Source: a virus
Lineage: Duplodnaviria; Heunggongvirae; Uroviricota; Caudoviricetes
Virus record (IMG/VR): IMGVR_UViG_2541047963_000003
Direction: 5' to 3' (one strand)
DNA length: 42,009 nucleotides
Shown here: positions 1-15,595 of the stretch, piece by piece
How the letters are laid out: every line of letters starts with the position of its first letter
How positions within the stretch are numbered: position 1 is the first letter of the stretch
Notes under the pieces: generated by a model
Database searches by the model: none
Seen by the model: only the letters and a program-made list of their open reading frames with translations
Told to the model about the DNA's origin: nothing
Position numbers and translations under genes: made by a program

Positions 1-1143
1 CTATGCTGTTTTGATATCTACGATAATCCAGTCTTTACCACGATCATCATTGTATCGGTCGGTCATTTTTCTGGATTTATGGCCTAACAACTTTTGCGTA
101 TCCAGACCCTGTTCCCGATATAACCGTTCTGACAGAGATCGCTGCTCATGAAATGTGGGCGCAGTTCCTTGCTCCCATTTTATGCCACATTTTTCCCTGG
201 CCTTTTTAAAAGCCGTTGTCAGAGTATTTGCAGAAACCTGGTCTCCTCTGTTTGCTTGAGAGGTAGTGTGACGGTAATGGACCAGATATTTACTAACAAC
301 AGCATCCCTGCACTGAGATATAACTTCACGAAGGGTAATATTCAGAGCATCGCATTTCAGGCTAAGCGGAATAGCAAGTTTTGAACCGGTTTTTTCCTGA
401 GTAATGTGCAACATGTCGTCCCATATATCAGAGAATTTCAAATTGCAGATATCGCCTAAACGTTGTCCAGTAACAAGAGCAAGTAGCATGCCGCATTTTA
501 AATAGGGCTGCCGTCTGCTTACGCTTTCAAATATTGCCTGCCATTCGGGCAGTGATAATCTTTGGCGGTTTACTCGATTTCGCGGTTGTTTTGTTGCCTG
601 CGCTGGGTTAAATCCTGGCGGAACATGTCCTGCGTGTTGTGCTTCTTTGAAGACGTCGATCAACACCATTCTCACGACTTGCGCCATCCTGTTATGACCT
701 TCAGCCTTTACAGCATCAATTATTTCGGCAATATCAAGTGCGGTAATATCCTTGAGGCGTTGCATTCCACAATGCTCACGGAAAAGACGAATGGGTTTAC
801 CTTTTTGCCGATAGGAGTTGGGTCTTAGTTCATTATGTTGCAGCCTGTCCTCCTGGATAGAAATATATTTATCAAGCCATTCTGTCACCGTAATGTCTGA
901 GCGCCTGCCTTTCATTCTTTCTAGACGCTCATTGACGCTTAATATTTGTCGGGTACGTTGTTCAGCAATAATGGTATTTGCTTCAGTAGCAACTTGTTTT
1001 GCTTCATTCTCATCAGTTCCTAAGCTATGAAAACGACCGGATAGTGGATGTTTGTATTGCCAATATACCTTTCCGGTTCGCTTATCTAATTTGCAATATA
1101 AATTGGGTATAGAGATTTTGTGAGATCGGGGTCTAGCAGCCAT
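1..1143 (-). CDS. int: Tyrosine integrase, lambda Int family
   Basis: 380-aa ORF; C-terminal region aligns by eye with lambda Int (HELRSLSARLY-like segment, LGHKS, RYxDDRG, WxxxxI); overlaps xis by 11 nt as in lambda; stop codon at nt 1-3. Confidence 0.9.
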   Translation of the reverse strand: MAARPRSHKISIPNLYCKLDKRTGKVYWQYKHPLSGRFHSLGTDENEAKQVATEANTIIAEQRTRQILSVNERLERMKGRRSDITVTEWLDKYISIQEDRLQHNELRPNSYRQKGKPIRLFREHCGMQRLKDITALDIAEIIDAVKAEGHNRMAQVVRMVLIDVFKEAQHAGHVPPGFNPAQATKQPRNRVNRQRLSLPEWQAIFESVSRRQPYLKCGMLLALVTGQRLGDICNLKFSDIWDDMLHITQEKTGSKLAIPLSLKCDALNITLREVISQCRDAVVSKYLVHYRHTTSQANRGDQVSANTLTTAFKKAREKCGIKWEQGTAPTFHEQRSLSERLYREQGLDTQKLLGHKSRKMTDRYNDDRGKDWIIVDIKTA

Positions 1144-2887: not shown

Positions 2888-3016
2888 CTAAGCCAGCCGC
2901 TGGGCTTTCAGTGGATTTTGGATAACAGAAAGGCCGGGAAATACCCAGTCTCGCTTTGTAACGGAGTAGATGAAAGTGATCGCGCCTACCCGGATATTAT
3001 CGTGAGGGTGCGTCAT
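2888..3016 (-). CDS. Lambda orf60a-like protein, 42 aa (shorter than the 60-aa lambda form)
   Basis: Translation [42 protein letters not shown] matches my recollection of the lambda orf60a N-terminus; start overlaps exo stop (ATGA). Confidence 0.4.
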
Positions 3017-3693
3017 CGCCATTGCTCCCCAAATACAAAACCAATTTCAGCCAGTGCCTCGTCCATTTTTTCGATGAACTCCGGCACCATCTCGTCAAAA
3101 CTCGCCATGTACTTTTCATCCCGCTCAACCACGACATAATGCAGTCCTTCACGCTTCATACGCGGGTCATAGTTGGCAAAGTACCAGGCATCTTTTCGCG
3201 TCACCCACATGCTGTACTGCACCTGGGCCATGTAAGCTGACTTTATGGCCTCGAAACTACCGAGCCGGAACTTCATGAAATCCCGGGAGGTAAACGGGCA
3301 TTTCAGTTCAAGGCCGTTGCCGTCACTGCATAAACCATCTGGAGAGCAGGCGGTACGCATACTTTCGTCGCGATAGATGATCGGTGATTCAGTAACATTC
3401 ACGCCGGAAGTGAACTCAAACAGGGCTCTGGCGTCGTTCTCGTACTGTTTTCCCCAGGCCAGCGCTTTAGCGTTAACTTCCGGAGCCACACCGGTGCAAA
3501 CCTCAGCAAGCAGGGTGTGGAAGTAGGACATTTTCATGTCAGGCCACTTTTTTCCGGAGCGGGGTTTTGCTATTACGTTATGAACTTCTGAAGCTGTGAT
3601 GACGCCGAGCCGTAATTTGTGCCACGCATCATCCCCCTGTTCGACAGCTCTCACGTCGATCCCGGTACGCTGCAGGATAATGTCCGGTGTCAT
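3013..3693 (-). CDS. exo: Lambda exonuclease (Red-alpha)
   Basis: 226-aa ORF; full-length, near-identical by recollection to lambda Exo ([50 protein letters not shown]...). Confidence 0.95.
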
Positions 3694-4475
3694 GCTGCCA
3701 CCTTCTGCTCTGCGGCTTTCTGTTTCAGGAATCCAAGAGCTTTTACTGCTTCGGCCTGTGTCAGTTCTGACGATGCGCGAATGTCGCGGCGAAATATCTG
3801 GGAACAGAGCGGCAATAAGTCGTCATCCCATGTTTTATCCAGGGCGATCAGCAGAGTGTTAATCTCCTGCATGCTTTCATCGTTAACCGGAGTGATGTCG
3901 CGTTCCGGCTGGCGTTCTGCAGTGTATGCGGTATTTTCGACAATGCGCTCGGCTTCATCCTTGTCATAGATACCAGCAAATCCGAAGGCCAGGCGGGCAC
4001 ACTGAATCATGGCTTTATGCCGTAACATCCGTTTGGGATGCGACTGCCACGGGCCGGTGATTTCTCTGCCTTCGCGGGTTTTGAATGGTTCGCGGCGGCA
4101 TTCATCCATCCATTCGGTAACGCAGATCGGATGATTACGGTCCTTGCGGTAAATCCGGCATGTACAGGATTCATTGTCCTGCTCAAAGTCCATGCCATCA
4201 AACTGCTGGTTTTCATTGATGATGCGGGACCAGCCATCAACGCCCACCACCGGAACAATGCCGTTCTGCTTATCAGGGAAGGCGTAAATTTCTTTCGTCC
4301 ACGGATTAAGGCCGTACTGGTTGGCGACGATCAACAATGCGATGAACTGCGCATCGCTGGCATCACCTTTAAATGCCGTCTGGCGAAGAGTGGTGATCAG
4401 TTCCTGTGGGTCGACAGAATCCATGCCGACACGTTCAGCCAGCTTCCCTGCCAGCGTTGCGAGTGCTGTACTCAT
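3690..4475 (-). CDS. bet: Recombination protein Bet (Red-beta, ssDNA annealing)
   Basis: 261-aa ORF; full-length match to recalled lambda Bet; overlaps exo start by 4 nt. Confidence 0.95.
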
Positions 4476-4480
4476 CCGTT

Positions 4481-4777
4481 TTATACCTCTGAATCAATAT
4501 CAACCTGGTGGTGAGCAATGGTTTCAACCATGTACCGGATGTGTTCTGCCATGCGCTCCTGAAACTCAACATCGTCATCAAACGCACGGGTAATGGCTTT
4601 TTTGCTGGCCCCGTGGCGTTGCAAATGATCGATGCAGAGTGATTCAAACAGGTGCTGGGACAGACCCTTTTCCATGTCGTCTGCCAGTTCTGCCTCTTTC
4701 TCTTCACGGGCGATCTGCTGGTAGTGACGTGCCCAGCTCTGAGCCTCAAGACGATCCTGAATGTAATAAGCGTTCAT
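4481..4777 (-). CDS. gam: Gam (RecBCD inhibitor), 98-aa short form
   Basis: [21 protein letters not shown]... matches lambda GamS; the in-frame upstream region reads ...FRSSA then hits a stop, so the 138-aa long form is not encoded. Confidence 0.9.
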
Positions 4778-4852
4778 GGCTGAACTCCTGAAAATGGCTG
4801 TGAAAATATCGCCCGCGAAATGCCCGGCTGATTAGGAAAACAGGAAAGGGGA

Positions 4853-5143
4853 TTAGTGATTGAGGCCGTTGCCGCGTCCGTCGAGAAAAACTTCCACGAG
4901 CAAATCACGGGTATAAGTGCGCTCGATGCCGCGATGCAGATAAAGCCGTCCGCGTAAATTAGCTGATGCAGTCCAGGTACCATCTTTGTGTTTGACCAGC
5001 ATTCCTGGCATGACCGCACCTCGATTAACGGTCTGCGTTCCGTAATGTTGATGAACCATAAAAACTCCTGCCCGTAAGCTGGGCTGCTGAACATATAGAG
5101 ACTTCTGCGCGTATTCAGGCGGTGGATGGCCGCCGGTTGTCAT
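4853..5143 (-). CDS. Hypothetical protein at the kil position (possibly shorter from an internal Met)
   Basis: 96-aa ORF; stop lies 76 nt upstream of the gam ATG, the spacing I recall for lambda kil relative to GamS; sequence not recognised. Confidence 0.35.
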
Positions 5144-5335
5144 AACTAAGCCGCCTCGTTGAAGCGACTAAGGTATGAAATGTTGAGTTGATTTCAGCTG
5201 GTCACACCGACGTTCACGCGTCCGTTTCACCCCTCGCACTCCCCGAAGCCTGCTGAAATTCAAACTGCGGATCTAAGCGGTCATCGCAACGGTGAATCAG
5301 GTAGTTGCCGTATCGTTGTGTTGTTGCGATGAACT

Positions 5336-5410
5336 TATTTAAAACTATAGTTGTTTTATCGTCAACAACAAAAGTTGTTTTATTGGTTGTTTTAGATATA
5401 ACTGGTTGTA
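5336..5410 (-). promoter_or_regulatory. Putative pL promoter and oL operator cluster
   Basis: On the minus strand, -35 TTGACG (plus 5360-5365), 17-18 nt spacer, -10 TTAAAT/TAAATA; spacer ATAAAACAACTATAGTT nearly identical to the pR spacer; GTTGTT/AACAAC inverted repeats at 5350-5369 and 5364-5379; repeated (A/G)GTTGTT at 5349, 5373, 5385, 5403. Confidence 0.5.
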
Positions 5411-5504
5411 TTTAGGATGGATTTATTTTGTGACTTGAATCGCATAGCGATAACTGAAGCGAGGTTATGGTGGTTTTTTTAACGGTGTGTGTGATGAGGG
5501 GAGG

Positions 5505-5533
5505 GCAAAAGAAAACCCGGCACGGTGACCGGG
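5505..5533 (-). terminator. Candidate intrinsic terminator downstream of the repressor gene
   Basis: Minus-strand hairpin CCCGG-N8-CCGGG (plus 5516-5533) followed by TTTTCTTTT on the minus strand; stem is only 5 bp. Confidence 0.35.
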
Positions 5534-5654
5534 ATTCTTACGCCGTTAGGTAAAGATATTATTGCGGTGGCTTAATATTACTACCTAGAGCAAAGATAGG
5601 AATTAGTTCTTTACTGAATGAGCACAATGCCCAGTTGATAATTTTTAATTGGTA

Positions 5655-6344
5655 CTACCCATGCTTCCTATATGTCTGCGGCATGCTCCCAATAACCTTA
5701 CCGAAGATGAACACCCGGTTCATCTCGTCTTTCTCGATCGGGTCCCACGGTGAGTAGCTTTTGTTATCAGAGATGACCAGCAGCTTATCCTTCATCATTT
5801 GCAGGCGCTTTACATGGGCTGTGTCGTCGTACAGAAACGCATAGATACCATCACCGTCGAAAGATTTAACTGTGATATCAACGAACAGCAGATCACCTGG
5901 TTCGATCGTTCCTGACATGCTGTCACCACGCACGTTAATGATGCGGATATTTTCCGCCTTCCTACCATCGAACATGTGACGAGCATCGTCAAACGAGTAC
6001 TCAACCGAGCGTAGAACTTCTACAAACTCACGGTTGATGACTCCCGGCCCAGCACTGACTTCTATATCAAGAACGTCAATCTTGAAGTATTTGGAATGGC
6101 TGACAGTTGATTGTATTGGTTGCACTGTACTGTCTGACATATTTCCAACGCCAGAAGATAACCATTCTGCGCGCACACCCAAAGCGTTCGCGATCTCCAC
6201 GATTTTAGTTGTTTGATTAGCTTTCCCTGTTTCGATTTTCTGAATAGCAGCCTGGCTAACCCCGACCAAATCCCCAAGCGCCTTTTGTGTAAGGCCTCGC
6301 GCTAATCTGGCTTCTTTAAGTCTTTCTGAGAGTGTTGTTTTCAT
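5655..6344 (-). CDS. cI: Prophage repressor, cI-like (XRE-family HTH plus S24 LexA-like peptidase domain)
   Basis: 229 aa from MKTTLSERLKEARLARGLTQKALGDLVGVSQAAIQKIETG (HTH); C-terminal GDSM...KRL resembles the S24 Ser/Lys dyad region; divergent from cro across an operator region. Confidence 0.85.
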   Translation of the reverse strand: MKTTLSERLKEARLARGLTQKALGDLVGVSQAAIQKIETGKANQTTKIVEIANALGVRAEWLSSGVGNMSDSTVQPIQSTVSHSKYFKIDVLDIEVSAGPGVINREFVEVLRSVEYSFDDARHMFDGRKAENIRIINVRGDSMSGTIEPGDLLFVDITVKSFDGDGIYAFLYDDTAHVKRLQMMKDKLLVISDNKSYSPWDPIEKDEMNRVFIFGKVIGSMPQTYRKHG

Positions 6345-6353
6345 AGTCCAAAT

Positions 6354-6421
6354 GTACAACCAAGGTTTTATTCCATCAAACGAAAATGGTTGTTGACTAA
6401 AAACAACCATAGTTTTAATCT
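6354..6421 (+). promoter_or_regulatory. oR operators and pR promoter
   Basis: Perfect palindrome ATGGTTGTT-GACTAAA-AACAACCAT at 6386-6410 overlapping -35 TTGACT (6393-6398); 17-nt spacer; -10 TAATCT (6416-6421); imperfect site ACAACCAAGGTTTT at 6354-6369 beside the cI start; cro RBS GGAGG at 6439-6443. Confidence 0.6.
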
Positions 6422-6448
6422 TGATTCAAGTTAACCACGGAGGTTGTT

Positions 6449-6679
6449 ATGAACCCAGCTATCAAAACAGCGATCAATATCGTTGGTTCACAAAAGAAAC
6501 TGGGCGCTGCTTGCGAAGTTTCACAGCAGGCCGTCTATAAGTGGCTTCACAACAAAGCAAAGGTATCCCCTGAACATGTCGGCAGCATTGTTACGGCTAC
6601 TGGTGGAGTAGTGAAGGCATACCAGATTCGCCCGGATCTTCCGAAGTTGTTTCCACACACCGAAAAGAACGCAGCTTAA
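6449..6679 (+). CDS. cro: Cro-like repressor (YdaS/Cro-type HTH)
   Basis: 76-aa ORF divergent from the repressor; VGSQKKLGAACEVSQQAVYKW is an HTH like Rac YdaS/Cro-family proteins. Confidence 0.8.
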   Translation: MNPAIKTAINIVGSQKKLGAACEVSQQAVYKWLHNKAKVSPEHVGSIVTATGGVVKAYQIRPDLPKLFPHTEKNAA

Positions 6680-6748
6680 ATTTCCATTTCACGCTCTTTA
6701 ACAATAAGCAATCAACTTAACAGTCAATTCAAACTAAAGGAGTCAATT

Positions 6749-7288
6749 ATGCAACCACTTACATACCAACAGACTAGCGGATTTAGCCCGACTGCGGTGA
6801 TAAATCGTTCTCAAACAAAACAGGTGCCAGGCCACGAAAAAATCCGTGATGCCGTCCGCGCCTGGTCGGCTGTAGATAATCAGGATGTCGTTGCCACACT
6901 CATTGTGAATGAGTATCGGGAGCAGGGCGGCGGCACCATCGATTTCCCTGATGATGTCAGCCGTGCACGCCAGAAGCTGTTCCGCTTCCTCGATAACAAA
7001 TTCGATTCTGAAAAATACCGAAATAACGTGCGTGAACTGACCCCGGCAATTCTGGCGGTACTACCGCTGGAATATCGCGGTTACCTGGTTGAGCAGGATA
7101 GCTTCATGGCTAGGTTGGCTGAAATGGAAAAGGAACTCAGTGAGGCAAAACAGGCTGTCATTCTCAACGCACCACGCCACCAGAAACTGAAGGAAATTAG
7201 TGAAGGTATTGTGTCGATGTTTCGTGTGGACCCAGATCTGGCTGGTCCATTGATGGCGATGGTTACTACCATGCTGGGGGCGATATGA
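6749..7288 (+). CDS. CII-position regulator, possibly CP76/phage-186-CII-like
   Basis: 179-aa ORF between cro and O with RBS AGGAG; size and position fit the CP76-type CII family rather than 97-aa lambda CII; family assignment from memory only. Confidence 0.5.
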   Translation: MQPLTYQQTSGFSPTAVINRSQTKQVPGHEKIRDAVRAWSAVDNQDVVATLIVNEYREQGGGTIDFPDDVSRARQKLFRFLDNKFDSEKYRNNVRELTPAILAVLPLEYRGYLVEQDSFMARLAEMEKELSEAKQAVILNAPRHQKLKEISEGIVSMFRVDPDLAGPLMAMVTTMLGAI

Positions 7289-7374
7289 CAGGTTCAGAAA
7301 TGGCGAAAGCCGGTCTGCTGGAACAGAACCGACTTTCAGGTGCAAATCGTAACACACTCATTGCGGGAGGAATT

Positions 7375-8304
7375 ATGGCAAACACTGCTGAGATATTCAA
7401 TTTTCCAGTGCCGGATGCGGCACAAAAGGAGCCGCGCGTGGCAGATCTCGATGATGGTTATACGCGCATTGCAAATGAGTTGCTGGAAGCTGTGATGCTG
7501 GCCGGATTAACACAGCACCAGCTTCTGGTCTTCCTGGCTGTCATGCGCAAAACATATGGCTTTAATAAAAAACTGGATTGGGTGAGCAACGAGCAACTTT
7601 CCGAGTTGACCGGGATATTGCCGCACAAGTGTTCTGCTGCAAAAAGTGTTCTGGTAAAGCGTGGGATTTTTATTCAGAGCGGGCGGAATATCGGCATTAA
7701 TAATGTGGTCAGTGAATGGTCAACATTACCCGAATCAGGTAAGAAAAATAAAGTTTACCTGAAAGAGGTAAATTTACCTGAATCAGGTAAGAAAAGTTTA
7801 CCCAAATCAGGTAAAGACGTTTACCCGAATCAGGTAAACACAAAAGACAAACTAACAAAAGACAATATAAAACCTTTTTCGTCCGAGAATTCTGGCGAAT
7901 CCTCTGACCAGCCAGAAAACGATCTTCCTGTGGTGAAACCGGATGCTGCAATTCAGAGCGGCAGCAAGTGGGGGACAGCAGAAGACCTGACCGCCGCAGA
8001 GTGGATGTTTGACATGGTGAAGACCATCGCGCCATCAGCCAGAAAACCGAATTTTGCAGGGTGGGCTAACGATATCCGCCTGATGCGTGAACGTGACGGA
8101 CGTAACCACCGCGACATGTGTGTACTGTTCCGCTGGGCATGCCAGGACAACTTCTGGTCCGGTAACGTGCTAAGTCCGGCCAAACTCCGCGACAAGTGGA
8201 CCCAACTCGAAATCAACCGTAACAAGCAACAGGCTGGCGTGACAGCCGGAAAATCAAAACTCGACCTGACAAACACTGACTGGATTTATGGGGTGGATTT
8301 ATGA
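7375..8304 (+). CDS. O: Replication initiator O
   Basis: NVADLDDGYxR...LLEA, RKTYG, LPESGK repeats and the C-terminal LSPxKxRDKWTQLEINRNKQQAGVTAGKxKLDLTNTDWIYGVDL match lambda O; start placed at ATG 7375 (RBS GGGAGG); track ORF opens at 7285. Confidence 0.9.
   Translation: MANTAEIFNFPVPDAAQKEPRVADLDDGYTRIANELLEAVMLAGLTQHQLLVFLAVMRKTYGFNKKLDWVSNEQLSELTGILPHKCSAAKSVLVKRGIFIQSGRNIGINNVVSEWSTLPESGKKNKVYLKEVNLPESGKKSLPKSGKDVYPNQVNTKDKLTKDNIKPFSSENSGESSDQPENDLPVVKPDAAIQSGSKWGTAEDLTAAEWMFDMVKTIAPSARKPNFAGWANDIRLMRERDGRNHRDMCVLFRWACQDNFWSGNVLSPAKLRDKWTQLEINRNKQQAGVTAGKSKLDLTNTDWIYGVDL
7726..7875. repeat. Replication origin: five ~18-bp iterons plus AT-rich segment inside O
   Basis: TTACC(C/T)GAAtCAGGTAA-like repeats at 7726-7742, 7754-7772, 7773-7791, 7797-7815, 7820-7838, followed by the A-rich stretch CACAAAAGACAAACTAACAAAAGACAATATAAAACC. 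Confidence 0.7.
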
Positions 8305-9002
8305 AAAACATCGCCGCACAGATGGTTAACTTTGACCGTGAGCAGATGCGTCGGATCGCCAACAACATGCCGGAACAGTACGACGAAAAGCCGCAGGTAC
8401 AGCAGGTAGCGCAGATCATCAACGGTGTGTTCAGCCAGTTACTGGCAACTTTCCCGGCGAGCCTGGCTAACCGTGACCAGAACGAACTGAACGAAATCCG
8501 CCGCCAGTGGGTTCTGGCTTTCCGGGAAAACGGGATCACCACGATGGAACAGGTTAACGCAGGAATGCGCGTAGCCCGTCGACAGAATCGACCATTCCTG
8601 CCATCACCCGGGCAGTTTGTTGCCTGGTGTCGTGAAGAAGCATCTGTTATTGCCGGACTGCCAAACGCCAGCGAGCTGGTTGATATGGTTTACGAGTATT
8701 GCCGGAAGCGTGGACTGTATCCAGATGCAGAGTCTTATCCGTGGAAATCAAACGCGCACTACTGGCTGGTTACCAATCTGTACCAGAACATGCGGGCCAA
8801 TGCGTTGACTGACGCGGAATTACGGCGCAAGGCTGCCGATGAACTGTCCTGTATGACCGCGCGAATTAACCGTGGTGAGGCTATACCTGAACCAGTAAAA
8901 CAACTTCCTGTCATGGGCGGTAGACCTCTAAATCGTGCACAGGCTCTGGCGAAGATCGCAGAAATCAAAGCTAAGTTCGGACTGAAAGGAGCCAGTGTAT
9001 GA
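8301..9002 (+). CDS. P: Replication protein P (DnaB helicase loader)
   Basis: 233-aa ORF; full-length match to recalled lambda P; overlaps O stop. Confidence 0.95.
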   Translation: MKNIAAQMVNFDREQMRRIANNMPEQYDEKPQVQQVAQIINGVFSQLLATFPASLANRDQNELNEIRRQWVLAFRENGITTMEQVNAGMRVARRQNRPFLPSPGQFVAWCREEASVIAGLPNASELVDMVYEYCRKRGLYPDAESYPWKSNAHYWLVTNLYQNMRANALTDAELRRKAADELSCMTARINRGEAIPEPVKQLPVMGGRPLNRAQALAKIAEIKAKFGLKGASV

Positions 9003-9301
9003 CGGGAAAAGAAGCAATTATTCATTACCTGGGGGCTCATAAGAGCTTCTGTGCGCAGGACGTTGCTGCGGTAACAGGCGCAACAGTAACCAGCATAAAT
9101 CAGGCTGCGGCTAAAATGGCGCGGACAGGAATCTTAGTTATTGATGGTAAGGTCTGGCGAACGGTGTATTACCGGTTCGCTACCAGGGAAGAACGGGAAG
9201 GAAAGGTGAGCACGAATCTGATTTTCAAGGAGTGTCGCCAGAGTGCCGCGATGAAGCGGGTATTGAGGGTATATAAAAGAACATCAATGGGTACACAATG
9301 A
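8999..9301 (+). CDS. ren: Ren exclusion protein
   Basis: MTGKEAIIHYLGAHKSFCAQDVAAVTGATVTSINQAAAKMAR... matches lambda Ren. Confidence 0.9.
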   Translation: MTGKEAIIHYLGAHKSFCAQDVAAVTGATVTSINQAAAKMARTGILVIDGKVWRTVYYRFATREEREGKVSTNLIFKECRQSAAMKRVLRVYKRTSMGTQ

Positions 9302-9314
9302 TGAAACAGGTGAG

Positions 9315-9701
9315 TTGAGTTCAAACTGTAGTACAATTCTCTCCAGTTTGAACAGGAAAGAATATGCTATTAACCCTTATATTTATCTTGGTGGTGCAAT
9401 ACTTGCAGAGGTCATTGGTACAACCTTAATGAAGTTTTCAGAAGGTTTTACACGGTTATGGCCATCTGTTGGTACAATTATTTGTTATTGTGCATCATTC
9501 TGGTTATTAGCTCAGACGCTGGCTTATATACCTACAGGGATTGCTTATGCTATCTGGTCAGGAGTCGGTATTGTCCTGATTAGCTTACTATCATGGGGAT
9601 TTTTCGGCCAACGGTTGGACCTGCCAGCCATTATAGGCATGATGTTGATTTGTGCCGGTGTGTTGGTTATTAATTTATTGTCACGAAGCACACCACATTA
9701 A
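9315..9701 (+). CDS. emrE: SMR-family multidrug efflux protein EmrE (start codon uncertain)
   Basis: Residues from NPYIYLGGAILAEVIGTTLMKFSEGFTRLWPSVGTII... to ...LSRSTPH match E. coli EmrE; the position of the canonical Met reads ATT (9369-9371); the track ORF starts at TTG 9315; RBS AGGAAAG at 9354-9360. Confidence 0.8.
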   Translation: MSSNCSTILSSLNRKEYAINPYIYLGGAILAEVIGTTLMKFSEGFTRLWPSVGTIICYCASFWLLAQTLAYIPTGIAYAIWSGVGIVLISLLSWGFFGQRLDLPAIIGMMLICAGVLVINLLSRSTPH

Positions 9702-15516: not shown

Positions 15517-15595
15517 CTGAACGGTGAGTAGCCTTCCAACCTACCCCAGCCAGGGTGTCTTCAGCTGTTGAGTTGATATTGCTTAACCCTCTGTT

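Follow-up and report, generated by a model that had tools for sequence, protein, structure and literature searches.

A 14-bp operator unit of the phage 434 format in the probable genetic switch of a lambdoid, DLP12-like prophage

Which of the overlapping repeats around the divergent early promoters of a prophage is the unit read by its repressor and its Cro protein? This question is raised by positions 5,336 to 6,421 of a viral sequence of 42,009 nucleotides (IMG/VR record IMGVR_UViG_2541047963_000003, Caudoviricetes), referred to here as the window, where the gene of a cI repressor lies between a left operator region (oL) with the leftward promoter pL and a right operator region (oR) with the rightward promoter pR, in front of cro. 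The original prediction held that matched operators lie in both promoters, proposed long inverted repeats built from GTTGTT and AACAAC as the binding sites of an S24-type repressor and a Cro-like protein, and saw in them the immunity specificity of the prophage.

The window carries a lambdoid prophage, and the region can with high confidence be regarded as the genetic switch of a lambdoid, DLP12-like prophage, in which 14-bp operators of the 434 format are arranged in the layout of lambda. The repeated unit is the 14-bp palindrome ACAAC-N4-GTTGT (i.e., ACAA-N6-TTGT, the operator format of phage 434), with ACAAC(C/T)AT(G/A)GTTGT as its fuller operator consensus. Thus, the general idea of the original prediction was right, but its specific binding-site model was wrong. 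The existence of matched operator sets in the divergent early promoters of a lambdoid immunity region is supported, and Pfam searches place beside them an S24-type repressor (HTH_3 and Peptidase_S24 domains) and a Cro-like protein of the YdaS family, as had been proposed. The long repeats, in turn, are made up of the right half of one 14-mer and the left half of the next.

The repeated unit of the two control regions

Palindromes were enumerated in both control regions with all 1024 possible 5-mer arms and gaps of 0-12. ACAAC with a gap of 4 took the top rank (five sites), the long junction repeats being ranked lower. With one mismatch at most, ACAAC-N4-GTTGT occurs five times in the 42 kb (at 5341, 5365, 6356, 6403 and 6434), always within the two control regions; local dinucleotide shuffles gave a mean of 0.04 such sites, and five were reached in none of 2000 shuffles. 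The site named oL2 is the only one in the window without any mismatch, and 6380-6393 joins the list once two mismatches are allowed. Measured from centre to centre, oL1 and oL2 are 24 bp apart, oR3 and oR2 24 bp, oR2 and oR1 23 bp, and oR1 and the site at 6434-6447 31 bp. As a plain word, GGTTGTT is not enriched over the whole window (8 copies found, 6.05 expected), so that only the gapped palindrome is informative. A lambda-style unit of 17 bp, AAAAC-N7-GTTTT, was also considered and discarded: it has three sites, ranks under the 14-mer and misfits oR3 and oR2.

All the strings quoted by the original prediction stand where it placed them, apart from minor inaccuracies, and it is mainly their reading as binding units that changes. 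pR is composed of TTGACT (6393-6398), the 17-nt spacer AAAAACAACCATAGTTT and TAATCT (6416-6421), while pL has CGTCAA at 5360-5365 (minus strand, TTGACG), after which the minus strand reads ATAAAACAACTATAGTT. The spacers are indeed nearly shared, the promoter cores being 95% complementary over 19 nt, with a shift of 1 nt between the -35 element and the CAAC motif that results in an arm spacing of N8 at pL and N7 at pR. What had been described as a perfect palindrome of 25 bp at pR has the expected arms, ATGGTTGTT and AACAACCAT, at 6386-6394 and 6402-6410, but it is not palindromic over 25 bp, being a 9-bp inverted repeat around the non-palindromic 7-nt spacer GACTAAA. GTTGTT-N8-AACAAC (5350-5369) is also present, but as the junction of neighbouring operators and not as a binding unit. 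AACAAC-AAAA-GTTGTT (5364-5379) is a genuine operator, oL2, and the sole true one among the proposed repeats. As for the further copies of GTTGTT, GGTTGTT is found at 5385-5391, while the copy assigned to 5403 reads GGTTGTA (5404-5410). Because the underlying centre-to-centre distance is 22-24 bp, the arm spacing of the junction repeats varies between the control regions and among relatives. Several elements had been missed, namely oR3, oR2, the promoter of cI (pRM) and the site over the cro ribosome-binding site.

Within the cI gene, GTTGTT at 6334-6339 (codons 2-4, MKTT) was not retained as an operator, given that most relatives use other codons (ACG AC) for the same residues. The gene also holds an operator-like 14-mer, ACGATTTTAGTTGT, at 6199-6212, on the codons for QTTKIV, where Pectobacterium relatives have ACAACCAAAATTGT. 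It was equally rejected as an operator, the similarity tracking the conserved QTTKIV peptide, from which this 14-mer probably follows; a weak intragenic site is possible.

Co-variation of recognition helices and half-site

The best relatives of the N-terminal domain of cI in the Protein Data Bank are the 434 repressor (1per/2or1; phmmer E 4.5e-9, gapless over residues 5-68) and dh434, an engineered variant of it. Residues Gln28, Gln17 and Arg10 of the 434 repressor are kept, and Ala, Ala, Gln and Lys stand in place of Gln29, Ser30, Glu32 and Gln33 (Q29A, S30A, E32Q and Q33K in 434 numbering), so that the recognition helix reads SQAAIQK instead of TQQSIEQ. For the C-terminal part, the autocleavage and catalytic residues read off the sequence against the S24 motif are Ala98-Gly99, Ser142 and Lys179. 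The matches of Cro to P22_Cro and HTH_3 are weak next to its match to YdaS_toxin.

A scan of one genome per bacterial species provided 35 loci encoding cI relatives, about 6.7 kb of each being examined, and 18 oR regions were aligned. Nearly every repressor with the helix SQAAIQKIE is accompanied by 14-mers at -25, -49, -72 and about -103 from the cI start, in Klebsiella, Kosakonia, Providencia, Morganella, Photorhabdus, Xenorhabdus, Izhakiella, Enterobacter, Pectobacterium, Brenneria, Erwinia, Serratia and Pantoea; in a Rhizobiaceae genome bin the sites stand at different offsets, and none was found at three distant or partial matches (L036-L038). Altogether, the 14-mers hold fixed positions in about 30 relatives, which belong to 12 or more genera, and their arms are invariant. 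Most loci also have an oL pair with a spacing of 22-24 bp, located 860-3275 nt downstream of the cI start according to the cargo, and hardly anything else in the 6.7 kb of each locus matches the 14-mer. The conserved columns of the aligned oR regions are the operator arms, the promoter hexamers, the Shine-Dalgarno (SD) sequence and the start codons, with variable centres and spacers. The gap within a site is always 4 and the distances between sites shift by 1-2 bp among relatives, and therefore the junction palindromes are excluded as a rigid binding unit.

The view that these operators specify immunity is borne out, since they are kept together with the same recognition helix: a Raoultella repressor (L006) that is 72% identical overall but carries the helix AQPTIWR has no ACAAC site at its locus. 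In the ACAAC group, the Cro helices read (S/T)QQAVYKW or TQAAVQKW, and ACAAC sites are present in oR and oL of phages UPF_BP1 (cI SQAAIQK, Cro SQAAVQK) and phiEt88 (cI SQANIQK, Cro SQAAVGK). In HK639 and Stx1 phages (cI SQPAIQK, Cro S/TQPAVHK), the sites at -25, -49 and -74 are perfect copies of ATAAC-N4-GTTAT, and 4A7, ST104 and L006 (cI AQPTIWR, Cro A/KQPTVWR) have sites of the ATACGC..GCGTAT type at the same places. Over three immunity types, each change of half-site goes with changes in the recognition helices of both cI and Cro, on a fixed architecture. Short of a footprint, this three-way co-variation is the strongest evidence available that both cI and Cro would read the 14-mers.

The HK639/Stx1 type has the same architecture as the ACAAC type, a cI N-terminal domain that is 56-58% identical and a homologous Cro, and its ATAAC half-site goes with a change from Ala to Pro at the third residue of the cI helix and from Gln to Pro at the same position of Cro. 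In HK639 (L041) and SH2026Stx1 (L042), the three ATAAC sites lie in a cI-cro region of 110-111 nt, of which the HK639 record annotates a putative pR only. These phages seem to form a sister immunity type that is set apart by a single half-site position and a single helix residue, and are presumably heteroimmune with the ACAAC type.

The assignment of residues to bases draws on the base contacts of the 434 co-crystal structures. On this basis, the third helix residue (Gln29 of 434) would track base pair 2, and the Lys found in place of Gln33 of 434, in both cI and Cro, may read the C:G pair at position 5. Half-site position 5 is always C in the window system and never C in the six annotated 434 operators, which have G, T or A. 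A simple code may exist in which Ala or Pro at helix residue 3 would determine C or T at operator position 2, and Lys for Gln33 would determine C at position 5.

Layout of operators and promoters

Table 1. Features of the switch and of the surrounding prophage (positions of the window)
Feature	Position	Strand	Description
cI repressor	5655-6344	-	229 aa; HTH_3 5.4e-13, Peptidase_S24 1.2e-18 (Pfam)
cro	6449-6679	+	76 aa; YdaS_toxin 4.1e-17, P22_Cro 8.1e-5 (Pfam); recognition helix SQQAVYKW
oR3	6356-6369		ACAACCAAGGTTTT; within pRM spacer; centre 18.5 bp from cI start
oR2	6380-6393		ACGAAAATGGTTGT; weak, 2 mismatches; centre 42.5 bp from cI start
oR1	6403-6416		ACAACCATAGTTTT; in pR spacer, overlaps first -10 base; centre 65.5 bp from cI start
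Candidate fourth operator, "oR4"	6434-6447		ACCACGGAGGTTGT; 1 mismatch; centre 31 bp from oR1
pR	6393-6421	+	TTGACT, 17-nt spacer, TAATCT; predicted start ~6428
pRM	6351-6379	-	-35 TTGATG (6379-6374), 17-nt spacer, -10 TACATT (6356-6351)
oL1	5341-5354		AAAACTATAGTTGT (minus strand ACAACTATAGTTTT); in pL spacer; 1 mismatch
oL2	5365-5378		ACAACAAAAGTTGT; perfect arms; abuts pL -35, 1-nt overlap
Candidate weak oL3	5396-5409		ATATAACTGGTTGT; good half 5405-5409; centre 31 bp from oL2, as in 434
Auxiliary half-sites GTTGT	5386-5390 and 5405-5409		within 5386-5409, upstream of oL2
pL	5336-5365	-	-35 TTGACG (5365-5360); predicted start ~5330
Intrinsic terminator after cI (t_imm-like)	5506-5533	-	CCCGGTCACCGTGCCGGG then TTTTCTTTT
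int	1-1143	-	gene order of the prophage
exo/bet/gam	3013-4777	-	gene order of the prophage
kil-like open reading frame	4853-5143	-	gene order of the prophage
CII equivalent	6749-7288	+	YdaT_toxin 8.5e-30 (Pfam)

cI and cro are divergent and separated by a gap of 104 bp, in which, by sequence, their promoters stand face-to-face (Table 1). Every relative with the SQAAIQK helix has an oR3 equivalent at -25, in most cases a perfect ACAACnnnnGTTGT whose centre varies; the oR1 equivalent of relatives is at -72/-73. In the window, oR2 adjoins the -35 element of pRM and overlaps that of pR by 1 nt. The positions proposed for pR and for the leftward pL, with -35 elements TTGACT and TTGACG, are conserved in relatives, and the pR hexamers follow TTGAyT and TAnnnT in the 18 relatives. 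In the alignment of 18 oR regions, the pRM elements TAnnTT and TTGa hold the same positions, with 6-7 nt to the ATG throughout, a geometry equal to that of lambda cI. The transcript is predicted to start at the A of the cI ATG (6344), giving rise to a leaderless mRNA. Relatives speak for this cI start, since they share the MKTTL beginning and the -10 element. Annotated starts differ among sister phages, being placed at an upstream ATG (6410; 251 aa), inside oR1/pR, in PhiR34_1 and PhiR5_1 (L001 and L003), and at 6344 (229 aa) in PhiR47_2 and PhiR26_1 (L002 and L004).

In the site at 6434-6447, the cro SD, GGAG, makes up the central 4 bp. Of the 17 other aligned loci in which cro is adjacent, 11 have this site in the same location with one mismatch at most, as does Salmonella phage UPF_BP1, and in the oR alignment the half-site before the SD (Ac.a.) is conserved but the 12 columns preceding it are not, all of which makes a fourth operator probable here. 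A site of the YdaT type, TTGATT-N6-AATCAA, was sought at the TTGATT beside pR (6421-6426) and rejected, with 3/6 matches in the second arm by eye and a stretch that is unconserved in relatives.

The oL pair lies about 1 kb from oR. At the position of oL2 most relatives have perfect arms and a variable 4-bp centre, and nearly all of them have a ACAACnnnnGTTTT 14-mer (the commonest being the minus-strand form of oL1 given in Table 1) 24 bp from it (23 in L014). The differences in oL sequence among four sister phages all fall outside oL1, oL2 and the -35 element. The register of the pL -10 element is ambiguous by 1 nt, either TTAAAT (5342-5337, 17-nt spacer) or TAAATA (5341-5336, 18-nt spacer), and the position of GTTGTTGAC and of a downstream (T)TAAT-like element is conserved in 23 relatives. 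A promoter-like sequence on the plus strand, TTGCGA-16-TATAGT (5324-5351), overlaps oL1 and aims into the terminator, and was taken as fortuitous. Upstream of oL2, 23 loci hold 33 copies of ACAAC in one orientation and 1 in the other (6.9 expected), with copies at 12, 22, 31 and 42 bp from oL2. Many relatives also have a conserved AAAAATAAAT element about 50-60 bp upstream of oL2, which in the window lies at 5420-5435 (minus strand, AAAATAAAT) and may be an UP-like, bending or IHF-type element for pL.

The following mechanism is proposed. Each half of a 14-mer would be read by one helix-turn-helix (HTH) domain of a cI dimer, and also by Cro. Bound at oR1 and the weak oR2, cI would block pR, and from oR2, beside the pRM -35 element, it would activate its own leaderless transcript. 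Occupation of oR3, the site that Cro would prefer, by Cro or by excess cI would shut pRM. On the left side, cI at oL1 and oL2, with the same relative positions in pL, would repress this promoter, and for the half-sites upstream of oL2 the role of a weak oL3, or of helper or bending elements, is probable. The site at 6434-6447 would probably add repression of cro or autoregulation by Cro. Finally, induction of the prophage would be brought about by RecA-stimulated self-cleavage of the S24 domain at Ala98-Gly99.

Several points weigh against this reading. In cI, four of the five residues that the 434 recognition helix exposes to solvent are different, and for this reason the 434 base contacts are not simply transferable to it. 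oR2 fits the consensus poorly, with two mismatches, and in relatives one half keeps to the consensus, the other being conserved as ACGAA. The conservation of the fourth site could partly reflect the constraint of a ribosome-binding site or an RNA hairpin, and the candidate oL3 has one good half only, its partner being unconserved. Moreover, pR and pL both escaped a simple promoter scan, owing to weak -10 hexamers (TAATCT with 3/6 matches, TTAAAT without A at position 2). The sequence comparisons show the sites with their spacing and conservation, and the way in which they co-vary with the recognition helices of both proteins; binding, cooperativity, activation, looping and the transcription starts are predicted by analogy with lambda and 434.

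Other explanations for the repeats were weighed. The one closest to the original prediction, in which a single long inverted repeat over each -35 element (ATGGTTGTT-N7-AACAACCAT at pR, GTTGTT-N8-AACAAC at pL) is the binding site and the other GGTTGTT copies are accessory, is improbable. These repeats are real and individually unexpected, being reached in 0/2000 and 1/2000 local shuffles, and the 9-bp arms at pR are perfect; but their arm spacing is 7 at pR and 8 at pL, while relatives show centre distances of 22-24 bp and a gap within the 14-mer that is fixed at 4, and the unbiased enumeration puts this unit below the 14-mer. Furthermore, the half-sites would be oriented opposite to those of the closest homologue, 434, and there would be no explanation for the lone perfect 14-mer at -25 before every cI, including rdgA-like genes of Pectobacterium that have no neighbouring sites.

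Slightly less credit still is given to phased A-tract bending or UP-like elements that stimulate the early promoters as an account of the ACAAC/AAAAC repeats, chiefly of the copies upstream of oL2. The extra copies there do lie at multiples of about 10 bp (12, 22, 31, 42), in one orientation, in A-rich runs and without palindromic partners. The core sites, unlike a bending element, are true palindromes with invariant arms that change along with the helices of cI and Cro, and relatives of the HK639 type have ATAAC at the same positions, not generic A-tracts; this account can hold for the auxiliary half-sites only. It has also been considered that a single regulator, for instance cI, reads the 14-mers, and that the Cro of the YdaS family, unrelated to 434 Cro, uses different overlapping sequences. 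In prophage CP-933P the footprints of repressor and YdaS overlap, the exact recognition sequences were left open and two repeat types were noted (PMC8630535). This last possibility is judged the least likely of all, given that in each type the Cro helix resembles that of cI and switches with it (SQQAVYK/SQAAIQK, SQPAVHK/SQPAIQK, AQPTVWR/AQPTIWR), which argues for a shared half-site. The 14-mer read by both cI and Cro is the preferred interpretation.

Relation to known switches, prophage context and significance

With phage 434, the window system shares a homologous HTH domain of the repressor, 14-bp ACAA-N6-TTGT operators and three sites per region at distances of 22-24 bp; the annotated 434 genome has six operators of 14 bp, 22-23 bp apart, with oL3 at 31 bp from oL2. 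Unlike in 434, Cro is of the YdaS family, pL is not followed by an N gene, and the operators are placed one step further upstream of pR, since in 434 oR1 covers the start site and oR2 the spacer. Taking into account that both the helix and the half-site differ, the specificity does not appear to be identical to that of 434.

The promoter geometry is that of lambda. From the cI start to the oR centres there are 18.5, 42.5 and 65.5 bp (19, 42 and 66 in lambda), the spacing is 24/23 in oR and 24 in oL (23/24 and 24 in lambda), and the distance between the cI and cro starts is 105 bp (101 in lambda). The divergent cI and cro, the -35 element TTGACT of pR overlapping the end of oR2, the filling of the pR spacer by oR1, the predicted leaderless start of cI, and the terminator and cargo slot between cI and oL are also lambda-like. 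Unlike in lambda, the operators have 14 and not 17 bp and an unrelated sequence, the HTH is of the 434/XRE type, an extra site covers the cro ribosome-binding site, and the CII equivalent is of the YdaT family.

The combination of a YdaS-family Cro with a YdaT-family CII equivalent is shared with CP-933P of E. coli O157:H7 (PaaR2/YdaS/YdaT). In that prophage, the repressor mRNA has been shown experimentally to be leaderless (PMC8630535), and several operators over the divergent PRM/PR, and the same operators at PL, have been demonstrated, with four repeats instead of three in the intergenic region (PMC8630535; PMC9986795). Its operators are 18-bp palindromes with GTTTAGTAA half-sites (PMC8630535), whereas ACAAC-based palindromes dominate the control regions of the window, and its repressor, PaaR2, heads a toxin-antitoxin operon. 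In the literature that was searched for sister phages (PhiR34_1, IdasGreatGrand) and for DLP12 immunity operators, nothing was found on the operators described here, and those of this immunity type appear to be undescribed.

A chromosomal counterpart exists in Pectobacterium, in which RdgA/RdgB place pectin lyase under DNA-damage control: in about 12 genomes of this genus and of the related Samsonia taken together, rdgA-like repressors have the same helix, SQAAIQKIE, and a perfect ACAACnnnnGTTGT at -25. At these loci (L016-L028, e.g., L016 3001-4528), a pL-like promoter and an oL1-like site precede a Mor-family (rdgB-like) gene, in a host-domesticated module without adjacent cro or oR1/oR2 sites. 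RdgA has been described as a regulator that responds to DNA damage (PMC13566846). That the rdgA-like repressors are orthologous to the published RdgA is an assumption based on gene order and on how phage phiEt88 is annotated. A host DNA-damage regulon of Pectobacterium would therefore use the same operator type as an E. coli prophage.

Beyond the CII equivalent, the prophage continues with O- and P-like replication genes, ren, an SMR transporter and a ybcK-like recombinase, a gene order that resembles that of the DLP12 element of K-12 in a more intact form. Phages PhiR34_1 and Turner have this immunity region with an identity of 99.8-99.9%. It recurs in PhiR47_2, PhiR5_1 and PhiR26_1 with differing cargo between cI and its terminator, and was found in 1524 of 5426 complete E. 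coli genomes, including the ST131 strain EC958 and an O157:H7 strain. The t_imm-like terminator adjoining oL is kept in sister phages, with cargo genes sitting between it and cI. In the window, no cargo occupies the interval from the cI stop to the terminator (5534-5654). The corresponding interval of sister phages (L002 2560-3988, L003 2304-3877, L004 2441-2821) carries GevA/GevT, a HipA-like toxin-antitoxin pair or a gene for a lipoprotein. This interval is a site of moron insertion, placed as rexAB is in lambda.

In relation to early transcription, a perfect rrn-type boxA, GCTCTTTAACAA, lies 14 nt past the cro stop, followed 5 nt on by the 13-mer AATCAACTTAACA (6693-6722, plus strand). The 13-mer recurs as AATCAACTCAACA on the leftward transcript (5181-5193, minus strand), about 137 nt past the predicted pL start, and a third copy, with one mismatch, is located at 15566-15578 (minus strand). 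There is no N-like open reading frame between pL and the kil-like gene, and boxA and the repeated 13-mer may constitute a nut-like or N-independent antitermination signal. An Rfam scan of 4000-9500 with E values up to 1 gave two chance-level matches only and no put- or nut-type family. The 188-nt pL leader (5331-5144, minus strand) was rejected as a put-like antiterminator RNA, its fold being no stabler than those of shuffles (z = -0.38).

In sum, this switch, widespread and previously uncharacterised, belongs to the lambdoid family and combines the operator format of 434 with the geometry of lambda and with partners of the YdaS/YdaT type. A departure from lambda and 434, consisting of a fourth operator on the cro SD, phased half-sites in one orientation, a residue-base code shared by cI and Cro and a possible cross-regulation between prophage and RdgA, is rather doubtful; the lambda/434 paradigm is confirmed unchanged, and the biology is that of an ordinary phage switch. 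The operator map tells which prophages are homoimmune, enables the rational design of reporter or induction-defective constructs and corrects the annotation of the cI start in some phage records. Moreover, the ACAAC, ATAAC and ATACGC types provide a natural series of helix and half-site swaps for the study of HTH specificity. Since chromosomal RdgA regulators of Pectobacterium share this helix and operator, there might, if this is true, be cross-regulation between host DNA-damage regulons and prophages with this immunity.

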